Positions 717 through 3,678 of a DNA stretch of 35,952 nucleotides are shown one piece after another. The first letter of the stretch is position 1. Every line of letters starts with the position of its first letter. The stretch lies in the NCBI GenBank assembly GCA_046331705.1, contig JAXLQJ010000027.1, positions 62,001 to 97,952 of the forward strand. The letters run 5' to 3'. Under the pieces are notes generated by a model. It did not search any database and was not told the DNA's origin. It saw only the letters and a program-made list of their open reading frames with translations. The DNA is from a bacterium (lineage in GTDB: Bacteria > JADJOY01). The translations under genes and the position numbers were made by a program.

Positions 717-733
717 TTGGCCCAGCGACTGCA
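717..733 (+). promoter_or_regulatory. sigma54 (-24/-12) promoter of the sulfate-uptake operon
   Basis: TTGGCCCAGCGACTGCA with GG at 719-720, exactly 10 nt, then GC at 731-732. Close to the YTGGCACGNNNNTTGCW consensus, about 70 nt upstream of the first ATG and next to a divergent activator-like gene. Confidence 0.65.
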
Positions 734-800: not shown

Positions 801-1025
801 ATGACCACCGCCCAGACATCGTCGTCCACGACCGAGCTTCCGCTCGAGGAGATCGTGCGGGCGGTTCGCCAGATCCGCTTCGGCTCGGTCGAGATCGTGA
901 TCCACGACTCGCGCATCGTGCAGATCGAGCGTCGCGAGAAGGTCCGCTTCGACAAGGCCGCCGGCGGAAACGGCCACAGCGGTTCACATCTCTCCCACGA
1001 CGCGTCCTCGCGCGCCGAGCGTTGA
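801..1025 (+). CDS. oscA: OscA/YezD-family (DUF2292) sulfur-starvation small protein, 74 aa
   Basis: Signature IRFGSVEIVIHDSRIVQIERREKVRF; AGGAG at 789-793 before ATG 801; upstream of sbp, as oscA is in Pseudomonas. Confidence 0.85.
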   Translation: MTTAQTSSSTTELPLEEIVRAVRQIRFGSVEIVIHDSRIVQIERREKVRFDKAAGGNGHSGSHLSHDASSRAER

Positions 1026-1070
1026 GCCGCGACTTTCTGCTCCGTCCCCGACCCAGCCGAACCCAACCCT

Positions 1071-1193
1071 GACCCACCAGACGACTGGCGGTCCGCACCG
1101 TGAAACCCCACGCATCGGCGCGCTTCGTGCCGACTCGATCGGTGCCTACCGGATCTCCGGCGGCCGCCCACCGAAGGAGATCCCGTCTGATGG
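1071..1193 (+). promoter_or_regulatory. Putative cis-regulatory RNA: twin hairpins that can refold to sequester the porin SD and AUG
   Basis: Hairpins GACC-CA-CCAG-ACGA-CTGG-C-GGTC (1071-1093) and GCC-TA-CCGG-ATCT-CCGG-C-GGC (1144-1164). Alternative helices 1151-1158/1176-1183 and 1074-1083/1184-1193. Confidence 0.55.
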
Positions 1194-2629
1194 CCACCTC
1201 ACGATTTTCGCAACGCTCGGCGCTCGCGGCGCTGGTGCTGACGATCGCGGCGCCCGCATTCGCCGGACCCCCCACCGCAGCCTCGACGCCCACCGCTCCC
1301 GCGGCGGCTCCCGCATCCACGGACCCCACCGCTCAGAAGCTGCAAGAGCTCGATCAGAAGGTGAAGGTGCTGGAGCGGCTTCGCGAGATCGACAAGGAGA
1401 CGGCCGACGCCAAGAAGGCGGAGGCGGTCACGGTCACGGCGAATCCCAAGGACGGGTTCTCGATCAAGAACGCCGACGGCACCTTCGTCCTCAAGCTCAC
1501 CGGCTTGGTGCAGACGGACGTGCGCAACTTCTTCGACGACACCACGGCGAAGCTCCCCACCCAGTTCCTGGTGCGGCGGGCGCGGCCGATCATCGAGGGC
1601 ACGGTCTACAAGTACTTCGAGTTCCGGCTTGTGCCCGATTTCGGCGGCGGCGCGGCGGTGATCCAGGATGCCTACGCCGACGTCAAGCTGATCCCAGAGC
1701 TCGCGCTGCGCACCGGCAAGTTCAAGGCACCGGTGGGCCTCGAGCGTCTCCAGTCCGACTCGTTCACGTTCTTCATCGAGCCGGGTCTGCCGACGGCGCT
1801 GGTGCCGAACCGAGACGTGGGCGCCCAGCTCTTCGGTGACATCGGCAACGGCGTGCTCACCTATCAGGTCGGTGTGTTCAACGGCGTCGCCGACGGCGCC
1901 AGCGGCGATCTGGACACCTTCGACGACAAGGACATCGACGCGCGGATCTACGCAGCGCCCTTCAAGACGACCGACGTGGACGCGCTGGTGGATCTCAACA
2001 TCGGCATCGCCGGAACCTTCGGGAGCCAGCACGGCAGCATCACGGCGCCCAATCTGCCCAGCTACCGCACGTTCGGGCAGAACACGTTCTTCCGTTACAA
2101 GACCGACGCCACGGCCACCGCCGCAGCGACGGCCGCCGGAACCGCGTACGCGGTTGGCTCGCGCACCCGTTTCACGCCGCAGCTCTACTGGGCGTGGGAT
2201 TCGTTCAGCACCCTCGCCGAGTACGTCCACTCGACACAGAAGGTGAAGCTCGCCGACGTCGCGGAAGACATCCCCGCGGACGCGTGGTCCGTCTCGGTCG
2301 GCTACGTGGTGACCGGTGAGAAGGCCTCCTTCAAGGGCGTGCAGCCCGCGGCTCCGTTCGATCCCGCCAACGGCGGCTGGGGCGCCGTGGAGCTGGTCGC
2401 TCGGTACGGCGACCTGACCATCGACGACAAGGCCTTCGACTCGAAGTTCGCGGACATCGCCAAGTCGGCGAAGGAAGCGAAGGAGTGGGGTGTGGGCGCC
2501 AACTGGTACCTCACCAAGATCTACAAGATCGCCCTCGATTACGGCCGCACGGAGTTCGACGGCGGCGCGAAGGGCGGCGACCGCGAGACCGAGAACGCGA
2601 TCCTCACGCGTCTCCAGGCGGCGTTCTGA
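1190..2629 (+). CDS. OprO/OprP-family anion-selective outer-membrane porin, 479 aa; sulfate is the probable substrate here
   Basis: Signal peptide ([15 protein letters not shown]), N-terminal coiled coil, Porin_O_P-like segments [38 protein letters not shown] and GANWYL, and a C-terminal Phe. AAGGAG at 1174-1179 supports ATG 1190. Confidence 0.85.
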
Positions 2630-2658: not shown

Positions 2659-3678
2659 ATGTCGCGTCGCGTTCTCACTCTGCTCACGATCCTGGCAGCG
2701 GCCGTCGTGGTCGCGTTCGCCGCACCACCCGCAGCACGGGCCGACGAGGAGCCGTTGCTCAACGTCTCGTACGACCCGACCCGCGAGCTCTACGAGGACT
2801 TCAACGAGGCGTTTGCCGCCTATTGGCAGAAGAGATCCGGCAAGGCGGTCACCATCCAGCAGTCCCATGGCGGCTCGGGCAAGCAGGCGCGCGCCGTGAT
2901 CGACGGGCTCAAGGCCGATGTCGTCACGCTGGCGCTCGCCTACGACATCGACGAGATCGCAGCGAAGGCGCGGCTGCTGCCCGCCGACTGGCAGACCCGC
3001 CTGCCCAACAACAGCTCGCCCTACACGTCGACGATCGTCTTCGTGGTGCGCGCCGGGAACCCCAAGGGAATCCACGACTGGAACGATCTGGTGAAGCCCG
3101 GCGTCTCGGTGATCACGCCCAACCCCAAGACCTCGGGCGGCGCGCGCTGGAACTACCTCGCTGCGTGGGGCTACGCGCTGCGCCAACCCGGCGGCAACGA
3201 CGCCACGGCGAAGGAGTTCGTGAGCAAGCTCTTCAAGAACGTGCCCGTGCTCGACTCGGGCGCGCGTGGCTCCACCACCACGTTCGTGCAGCGCGAGATC
3301 GGTGACGTGTTCATCTCGTGGGAGAACGAGGCCTATCTGGCGGTGAACGAGCTCGGGAAGGACAAGCTCGAGATCGTGGTGCCGTCGGTCTCGATCCTGG
3401 CGGAGCCGCCAGTCGCGGTGGTCGACAAGGTGGTGGACAAGAAGGGCACCCGCGAGGTCGCCGAGGAATACCTGAAATACCTCTACACGCCCGAAGGCCA
3501 GGCGATCGCAGCGAAGCATTACTACCGCCCGCGTCTGGCCGCGGCGGCCGCCGCCGGGCCACGACTCGCGAGCCTGCCGCTGTTCACCATCGACGAGGTT
3601 TTCGGTGGCTGGCAGAAGGCCCAGAAGACCCATTTCGCCGATGGCGGCGTCTTCGATCAGATCTACGCCGCCAAGTGA
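2659..3678 (+). CDS. sbp: Sulfate ABC transporter periplasmic binding protein
   Basis: [51 protein letters not shown]; signal peptide; GGAG at 2646-2649. Confidence 0.95.

Follow-up and report, generated by a model that had tools for sequence, protein, structure and literature searches.

A conserved hairpin motif downstream of DUF2292 genes, a candidate element for translational control of the neighbouring gene

What lies in the spacer between a small gene of the DUF2292 family and the outer-membrane porin gene behind it, and could it control translation of the porin? The question is raised by a stretch of 35,952 nucleotides from contig JAXLQJ010000027.1 (the window, whose coordinates are counted from its first letter), which comes from a bacterium of lineage JADJOY01. 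The open reading frame (ORF) at 801-1022 (+) matches DUF2292 (Pfam PF10055, E 1.9e-17; 63 bits against a cut-off of 22), a domain that Pfam annotates as uncharacterised. With its stop codon (1023-1025) this OscA-like gene occupies 801..1025 (+) and encodes a protein of 74 amino acids; it is the only DUF2292 gene in the source genome. A first-pass annotation had read two hairpins of one architecture in the spacer, and had proposed that they refold to bury the Shine-Dalgarno (SD) sequence and start codon of the porin as a sulfur-responsive translational switch. Both hairpins are present. Hairpin 1, the distal copy (1071..1093, +; GACC-CA-CCAG-ACGA-CTGG-C-GGTC), has a GACC/GGUC lower stem, a CA/C internal loop, a CCAG/CUGG upper stem and an ACGA loop. 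Hairpin 2, the start-proximal copy and proposed switching element (1144..1164, +; GCC-TA-CCGG-ATCT-CCGG-C-GGC), has a GCC/GGC lower stem, a UA/C internal loop, a CCGG/CCGG upper stem and an AUCU loop.

Hairpins of this kind were found after DUF2292 genes in many other bacteria. We compared 80 DUF2292 loci from public genomes of more than 10 phyla, including Thermoanaerobaculia and other Acidobacteriota, Nitrospira, Latescibacterota, Gemmatimonadota, Planctomycetia, Verrucomicrobiota, Kiritimatiellia, Actinomycetes/Thermoleophilia, Cytophagia, Methylococcaceae (with Methylococcus capsulatus), Nitrosomonas and Burkholderiales. Paired CYRG-N4-CYRG units numbered 118 in the 360 nt downstream of the gene, against 10 in an upstream and 19 in a far-downstream control zone, and at least one was present in 73 of the 80 loci. 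A covariance model, R1, was built from 107 seed units, the two window hairpins among them. At E<=0.1 it gave 113 matches in the same loci, on which it had been trained, and 112 of these lay directly downstream on the gene's strand; 75 loci had at least one match, 37 had two and 38 of the 80 had a single hairpin. Among 150 evenly drawn Acidobacteriota genomes DUF2292 was present in four, and the model matched just downstream in 4/4 loci (33.5/28.1, 29.2/24.1, 28.3/19.1 and 21.7 bits). Among 300 genomes of Gammaproteobacteria it was present in 11, with a match of at least 20 bits 30-230 nt downstream on the same strand in 11/11, or 8/8 when three unpublished genomes are set aside. All 16 matches of at least 19.7 bits in the 36.7 kb searched in this second sample lie in that interval downstream of DUF2292 and on its strand. 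The single locus in which a phosphorylase gene follows lacks the motif. We are confident that this is a real conserved RNA motif tied to DUF2292, and refer to it as the DUF2292-associated hairpin.

The motif consists of a covarying lower stem of 3-5 bp, a 2x1 internal loop, a CCRG/CYGG upper stem with hardly any variation and a tetraloop with A as its usual first base. The internal loop is mostly GA/A (in general NA/M; CA/C and UA/C in the window). The consensus of the start-proximal copy is gaaCUGA-CCGG-AYNA-CCGG-ARGuuc, and that of the distal copy GGCC-GA-CCRG-ACNN-CYGG-A-GGCC. In 122 units the third position of the tetraloop was A in 21, C in 64, G in 28 and T in 9, and the fourth was A or G in 90. 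Both window hairpins have the upper stem, NA/M loop and lower stem of the motif, and lie on the same strand as DUF2292 and no more than about 250 nt downstream of it.

Pairing of the lower stem was scored over its five positions in the 122 distinct units without filtering, and was 0.713, compared with 0.58+-0.013 after permutation (reached in 0/2000) and at most 0.515 in slid registers. For the alignment of 107 units, 17 of 124 were dropped (14 in coding sequence or overlapping, one doubtful intergenic unit and two duplicates from the same genomes). In this alignment 86.6% of cells were paired against 77.5% after shuffling (0/500), and the covariation score was 0.363 against 0.200 (0/500), or no more than 0.192 with slid partners. 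Each of the three outer pairs of the lower stem is G-C in some units and A-U in others (35/32, 27/26 and 26/8), and the upper-stem pairs are CG in 105/105, CG in 100/105, GC in 81/105 with AU in 21, and GC in 105/105. The first-pass annotation had made its proposal depend on a conserved, covarying hairpin after DUF2292 homologues, and such a hairpin is seen across phyla.

The units might instead be DNA sites, that is, palindromic CCGG-N4-CCGG operators for a transcription factor at an internal porin promoter. Both CCGG-N4-CCGG and CCAG-N4-CTGG are inverted repeats, and the window sites start 72 bp apart, about seven helical turns. However, the stems contain G-U pairs (CUGG/CCGG and CCGG/CUGG, with U-G in the lower stem), which would be mismatches in a DNA palindrome and are A-C on the other strand, and all but one of the 113 matches lie on the gene's strand. 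The motif therefore appears to be sense-strand RNA rather than a DNA operator. Moreover, conservation extends to the asymmetric 2x1 loop, copies in twin loci are separated by anything from 28 to 61 nt, the fixed spacing is to the start codon and not to a promoter, and transcription factors are rarely conserved over more than 10 phyla. We regard DNA-level operators as extremely improbable.

A second covariance model, R2, drew on 97 units from other lineages and on none from the window's genus or family. It matched both window hairpins (1067-1098, 26.7 bits, E 3.8e-5; 1139-1170, 23.5 bits, E 2.9e-4), and its next-best match on either strand of the window scored 10.9 bits. When R1 was run over the whole 8.17-Mb genome, the window hairpins were the top matches (28.6 and 25.7 bits; next 21). 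In whole-genome searches of the source genome and five other carriers, the credible matches all lay at DUF2292 loci with one exception at a contig end. In a Nitrospira genome, the exception (L150; G041:C120:7994-8025, -) is a second full motif, complete with SD sequence and start codon (MRMTWLF...); some 110 nt separate it from the contig end, and the upstream DNA where DUF2292 would sit is missing. A genome-wide repeat resembling repetitive extragenic palindromes was also considered and rejected: the pattern ACCRGAYNNCYGGMGG occurs six times in the genome, twice here, and the other four occurrences form no hairpin.

Two broader searches for orphan sites were set aside. The loose pattern GACCGGANNNCCGGARG matched in 52 of 151 Nitrospirota genomes, and of 29 new loci two had DUF2292 and a ribosome-binding site (RBS) in context, while 27 looked like coding sequence; the pattern is therefore unfit for this purpose. 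R1 used alone on the 150 Acidobacteriota genomes gave 19 new matches at E<=0.005, of which 17 were judged to be background, and the specificity of a single-hairpin model in GC-rich genomes is too low to prove orphan sites absent.

The first-pass annotation recognised no riboswitch class in the hairpins, and Rfam 15 likewise has no match on them. At E<=10, positions 500-1500 of the window matched only sR34 (16.3 of 40 bits) and malK-III (14.2 of 50), neither of which overlaps the hairpins. Twenty loci of other phyla, searched at E<=1, gave tRNA and a chance match to sR53, none of them on the motif, and scans of small regions of two loci (L080 and L041) gave chance matches to miRNA, snoRNA and isrG families far under threshold. 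A full-text literature search, which did not extend to supplementary motif lists, found no RNA element linked to DUF2292, OscA or YezD. The motif is thus a widespread and apparently undescribed cis-regulatory RNA.

In most loci 21-36 nt, most often 29-30, separate the end of the proximal core from the next start codon. The core of hairpin 2 ends 29 nt 5' of the porin AUG, the modal spacing. Among 69 next genes scanned, 43 matched Porin_O_P, nine BBP2, five Alginate_exp, one each Porin_4, Porin_1 and a TonB-dependent receptor, and three, in Actinobacteria, an ATP-binding cassette (ABC) ATPase. The channel genes that follow the motif thus belong to unrelated families. In five loci of Actinomycetes/Thermoleophilia (L027, L048, L049, L063 and L064) a single CA/C hairpin, like that of the window, is followed by an ABC-transporter ATPase gene 106-155 nt further on. 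As the start codon at this distance is that of an ATPase and not of a porin, the expression platform must differ in these Gram-positive carriers.

In some Gammaproteobacteria and Vicinamibacteria (L102, at 1660-1684, L091, L059 and L095) a single hairpin lies at the DUF2292 stop codon or no more than about 15 nt from it; in L102 the UGA within the consensus CUGA-CCGG itself serves as the stop codon. Because the motif starts so close to the stop codon, a terminating ribosome would unfold the hairpin in these loci. In five others (L043 and L074 of Planctomycetia, L050, L096 and L029) the DUF2292 frame is open through the motif and encodes ...DRT(S/T)G...; in L029 it is apparently fused in frame to the porin ORF, which an assembly error or frameshift may explain. 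We also considered that the motif is conserved as coding sequence, since it reads D/H-R/Q-T-T/S-G-G in one frame and the DUF2292 frame crosses it in five loci. This explanation was rejected because the spacing between copies is mostly not a multiple of three and a stop codon usually lies between the gene and the motif.

We then considered the refolding proposed for the window. GGATCTCC (1151-1158) is perfectly complementary to GGAGATCC (1176-1183) in a helix of 8 bp, and CCACCAGACG (1074-1083) pairs at 9/10 positions with CGTCTGATGG (1184-1193; CGUCUGAUGG), with a single C-A mismatch at 1077/1190; both pairings had been noted at first pass. The anti-SD strand, GGAUCUCC (1151..1158, +), comprises the 3' half of the 5' upper-stem strand of hairpin 2, its loop and the start of its 3' strand. 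Its partner is the porin SD region, GGAGAUCC (1176..1183, +), in which GGAG (1176-1179) has a mean unpaired probability of 0.002. RNAfold on 1026-1215 gave the nested fold, in which both helices form (the OFF fold), as the minimum at -65.7 kcal/mol, tied with a fold containing hairpin 1 and the anti-SD helix, and gave -60.9 kcal/mol for the twin-hairpin (ON) fold. In the ensemble, the anti-SD helix has a probability of 0.998, hairpin 2 about 0 and hairpin 1 0.75. The cost of forcing hairpin 2 is about 5 kcal/mol. The fold of 1026-1200 has z = -2.67 relative to 200 shuffles.

The window was compared with five relatives, four in its genus and a fifth in its family, all with the same gene order. 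The upper stems of both hairpins are invariant in 6/6 family members, and the loops differ. The pairs of the anti-SD 8-mer are kept at 8/8, 8/8, 7/8 and 6/8 in the genus relatives, whereas of the 10 pairs between hairpin 1 and the AUG region the five relatives keep 5, 5, 3, 4 and 2. A nested OFF state with both helices is therefore peculiar to the window. Thus the first-pass fold, a tied minimum in the window, is supported in one arm, the anti-SD helix, with which hairpin 2 is mutually exclusive, and is not supported by the relatives in the other. The anti-SD helix is semi-conserved (kept in 4/5 close relatives) and the AUG helix is specific to the window. Between the two hairpins the minimum free-energy (MFE) fold contains a genus-specific central domain (1095..1145, +), a hairpin at 1115-1133 closed by GCACCG (1095-1100) pairing with CGGUGC (1140-1145). 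Its inner stem is kept in the four genus relatives, and in two of them (G003 and G004) the closing helix is instead CCAGCA:UGCUGG in a shifted register; in the family-level relative no domain of this form was found.

Competition with other helices is common among the loci. The hairpin core is absent from the MFE structure in 41 of 63 loci, with a median forcing cost of 2.8 kcal/mol, and of 33 twin loci, 22 have the distal copy formed at P>0.5 and 11 the proximal copy. A 16-bp helix in Nitrospira-type loci, CCGGAAGUUC-CAUGUC with GACAUG-GAAUUUCCGG, covers the AUG and first codons and overlaps the 3' half of the hairpin. Compensated variants of this helix were recognised by eye (CCGGAG:CUCCGG, CAUGCG:CGCAUG and CCUCAU:AUGAGG); covariation of the competing helix could not be scored column by column in 14 such loci, as its pairing register differs from clade to clade. 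In the window's genus and in several Acidobacteriota it is the loop together with the stem (GGAUCUCC and GGACCUCC respectively) that pairs with the SD. Duplexes between motif and RBS had an energy of -12.67 kcal/mol for native combinations, against -10.96+-0.26 kcal/mol for combinations across loci (0/300), a difference of 1.7. We read the competing helix as a frequent, non-universal part of the device.

We favour, with moderate confidence, control of translation initiation by a hairpin that a factor stabilises, because the motif is linked to DUF2292 whatever gene follows, keeps a fixed distance to the start codon and is frequently out-competed by another helix. From these observations we infer regulation of translation, together with a direction and a factor for the switch. 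The motif would act in the intercistronic leader between the OscA-like gene and the next gene, usually that of an outer-membrane channel. Hairpin 2 would be the switch: unaided, its 5' half and loop would pair with the SD sequence and block translation of the porin, and the block would probably extend to expression of the sulfate importer genes behind it. A factor that stabilised hairpin 2 by about 5 kcal/mol would free the RBS. The most likely candidate would be the homodimeric OscA/DUF2292 protein, encoded just upstream on the same mRNA, and hairpin 1 would serve as a constitutively folded second site. That the motif controls the RBS of the next gene seems to us somewhat probable. The explanation as a whole, a factor-operated translational control element of the next gene, we judge to be evenly balanced.

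A structural element that needs no factor would also suit the intercistronic location and the stable folding of hairpin 1. Candidates are a hairpin for processing or stabilisation, an obstacle to Rho or to exonucleases, a device that sets the ratio of oscA to porin expression, or a link between termination on oscA and translation of the porin. The untranslated stretch from the oscA stop codon to hairpin 1 (1026..1070, +) is C-rich and G-poor, although poorly kept in relatives; positions 1026-1075 contain 26 C and 9 G in 50, a composition typical of Rho-utilisation sites, which would fit Rho-dependent polarity when the porin is untranslated. In L102, L091 and L059 ribosomes that terminate on DUF2292 would melt the motif, which starts at its stop codon or up to 15 nt away. 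However, stabilisation alone would not call for an invariant CCGG stem or for an asymmetric internal loop conserved across phyla. Nor would it require a constant distance of about 29 nt to the next start codon, or competing helices that prevent the motif from folding in 41/63 loci. We therefore think a factor-independent element unlikely. Given the composition of 1026-1075, a block to porin translation might also bring polarity on the sulfate importer genes.

Alternatively, the hairpins may themselves sense a metabolite or ion, binding a sulfur-related ligand directly to free the RBS, with OscA as a co-regulated passenger. A comparable system is the guanidine-II riboswitch (mini-ykkC, RF01068), in which two hairpins with conserved ACGR tetraloops control guanidine carboxylase and exporter genes at the level of translation. 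The window resembles it in having two short hairpins of the same architecture with A-started tetraloops directly upstream of the RBS, and a competing anti-SD helix; the ACGA loop of hairpin 1 fits ACGR, and conservation across phyla is typical of riboswitches. Unlike guanidine-II, however, the window loops ACGA and AUCU do not jointly fit ACGR, and it is the helix and internal loop that are conserved while the tetraloop varies. About half of the loci (38/80) have a single hairpin, and a hairpin of 9 bp leaves little room for a ligand pocket. The context is sulfate uptake (porins, barrels and ABC ATPases), not guanidine export. A riboswitch would have no need always to follow DUF2292, and riboswitches normally precede the first gene of an operon; Rfam, including mini-ykkC, gave no match. 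Direct ligand sensing seems to us distinctly improbable.

If a factor operates the hairpin, the small protein is the most likely candidate. OscA of Pseudomonas corrugata 28 (Viti et al. 2009) is a small DUF2292 protein whose gene lies directly upstream of, and is co-transcribed with, sulfate-uptake genes; it has a sulfur-starvation and chromate phenotype and no known molecular function, and the passages on it in PMC3596284, which cite that study, mention no RNA element. The window differs from that locus in that a porin gene lies between oscA and sbp, and in that its protein scores 50.4 bits against NCBIfam sulfur_OscA (NF033785), under the 85-bit equivalog cut-off. An AlphaFold 2 model of the window protein (predicted local distance difference test, pLDDT, 73.7) has a helix at 12-23 and a beta-hairpin at 28-35/38-46. 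A symmetric dimer is predicted through strand 25-37, with an interface score (ipSAE) of 0.54 against 0.21 for the best of three controls. In the calibration of the predictor this mark was reached by 20/30 proteins solved as one-chain pairs and by 1/23 solved as single chains, counts that apply approximately here since the alignment supplied was our own. The three dimer runs agree in at least 90% of contacts, with a partner pLDDT of at least 72, and the conserved residues Q41, E43, R44, E46, K47 and R49 lie outside the predicted interface. A sequence search of the PDB gave no relative (best E 0.49). A two-fold symmetric dimer would suit two hairpins or a palindromic CCGG/CCGG helix, if the model is right. 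We propose OscA as the operator on account of its near-obligate gene linkage and its predicted symmetric dimer, and regard this assignment as plausible but tentative.

Comparable arrangements exist among known RNA-based regulators. In the hut operon of Bacillus subtilis (hutP-terminator-hutH) the gene of a small regulator, HutP, comes first, followed by the RNA element and then the structural genes. The CAT domains of BglG, SacY and LicT are small beta-sheet dimers that stabilise a hairpin with asymmetric internal loops, the RAT, which is exclusive of an inhibitory structure. The window has the same order of small gene, RNA element and structural genes. In contrast to both systems, its inhibitory structure is an RBS-sequestering helix and not a terminator, and neither sequence nor fold searches connected DUF2292 with HutP or CAT. 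DUF2292 carries no PRD or other known sensor domain, and binds RNA only putatively. CsrA/RsmA is likewise a small beta-rich homodimer, which binds two sites, one of them near the SD, through GGA in single-stranded loops, and acts globally and in trans. The motif also holds GGA twice (CCGGA..CCGGAGG), and OscA is predicted to be a small beta-rich homodimer. Unlike CsrA targets, the GGA of the motif is mostly base-paired, there is one locus per genome and the protein family is different.

Several observations weigh against factor-operated control of the RBS. Support from covariation comes from the lower stem only, as the upper stem is nearly invariant and its pairing was required by the selection pattern. 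The lower-stem signal reflects in part two sequence classes, a GGCC-type distal and a GAACU/AGUUC-type proximal copy, and kinship alone can lift related sequences above shuffles without any structure. R1 is unspecific in GC-rich genomes, and the 17 of 19 new Acidobacteriota matches counted above as background lie in genomes without DUF2292 and outside an RBS context. One of these 17 (L177; G240:C3:129724-129755, -) is an orphan match of 30.8 bits, CUGA-CCGG-ACGA-CCGG-AGG; no DUF2292 was detectable in its genome or locus, and no obvious RBS follows the motif.

Further points against concern the competing helix. The family-level relative of the window keeps 4/8 anti-SD pairs, and the loop change from AUCU to AUCC within the genus weakens the anti-SD helix without compensation (6/8, 7/8). 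In the AU-rich Methylococcaceae loci the duplex comparison found no competing helix. The GC-rich motif pairs with much else, since a coding-sequence control from the same locus (-14.87 kcal/mol) beats the RBS (-12.67 kcal/mol). Of the idea that the hairpins turn the porin on and off through its RBS, the OFF side agrees with the predicted ground state, the anti-SD helix, but forcing the hairpin raised computed RBS accessibility in only 16 of 63 loci, leaving it unchanged in 43 and lowering it in 4. As for OscA, its link to the RNA is drawn from gene neighbourhood, the protein carries conserved acidic residues, and its model has no significant structural neighbour, RNA-binding or other, in a Foldseek search of the PDB (E>=1.4) or with VIA-align (Z<=2.4).

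The remaining features of the locus place the hairpins within an operon. A promoter-like element read from the sequence, TGGCCC-N5-CTGCA (718..733, +), has GG and GC 12 nt apart, a consensus that we take to be of sigma-54 type. It lies about 70 nt 5' of the OscA-like start codon, and TGGCGC-N5-(C/A/G)TGCA is present at the equivalent place in 4/4 relatives of the same genus. It is likely to mark the start of the operon transcript that carries the hairpins. As it precedes the small gene, the hairpins would lie within a polycistronic leader and not at the transcript start. Contigs from three RNA libraries cover parts of oscA and the spacer (positions 914-1179, without a difference, and also 847-1111 and 771-985) and fit their co-transcription weakly, as depth is low and DNA carry-over is possible; such contigs show neither transcript ends, strand nor level, and the parts that they leave uncovered carry no meaning. 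Further upstream, a divergent ORF (3-578, -) has a weak Pfam match to GAF_2.

Downstream of the hairpins, the outer-membrane anion porin gene (Porin_O_P; 1190..2629, +; Pfam match 1190-2626) begins with a signal peptide. The ORF listing gives a 509-residue ORF from GTG 1100 (1100-2629, +), which would cross hairpin 2. The true start is instead ATG 1190, as the SD sequence and signal peptides are kept in relatives. The only NCBIfam match of 1190-2626 is a weak one to ExtI, a porin of selenite/tellurite operons (25.8 bits against a cut-off of 150), and the Pfam label 'phosphate-selective porin' is probably misleading within a sulfate-uptake operon. The porin gene is followed by a sulfate-binding protein gene (2659-3675; Pfam match) and by ORFs that, from position and sequence, we read as cysT, cysW and cysA.

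A more speculative reading than the assignment of OscA as operator would make DUF2292/OscA/YezD a new family of small regulators that bind RNA as homodimers, with the palindromic CCGG-stem hairpin as their cognate site and, here, translation as the level of action. Protein and hairpin would then form an ancient, self-contained, cis-encoded switch, present in more than 10 bacterial phyla, that gates outer-membrane anion channels and sulfate importers in sulfur starvation. Methylococcus capsulatus and Nitrosomonas sp. Nm33 carry the module and are both cultured, so that experiments are feasible. A conserved RNA partner encoded beside DUF2292 offers a concrete, testable hypothesis for a domain of unknown function found in many phyla. 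The motif adds an unannotated cis-regulatory RNA family to the sulfur-acquisition operons of bacteria of environmental importance, among them Nitrospira, Nitrosomonas, methanotrophs and Acidobacteriota. It also suggests that dedicated outer-membrane anion channels are under post-transcriptional control, in addition to the transcriptional control of sigma-54 or Rrf2 type seen at such loci.

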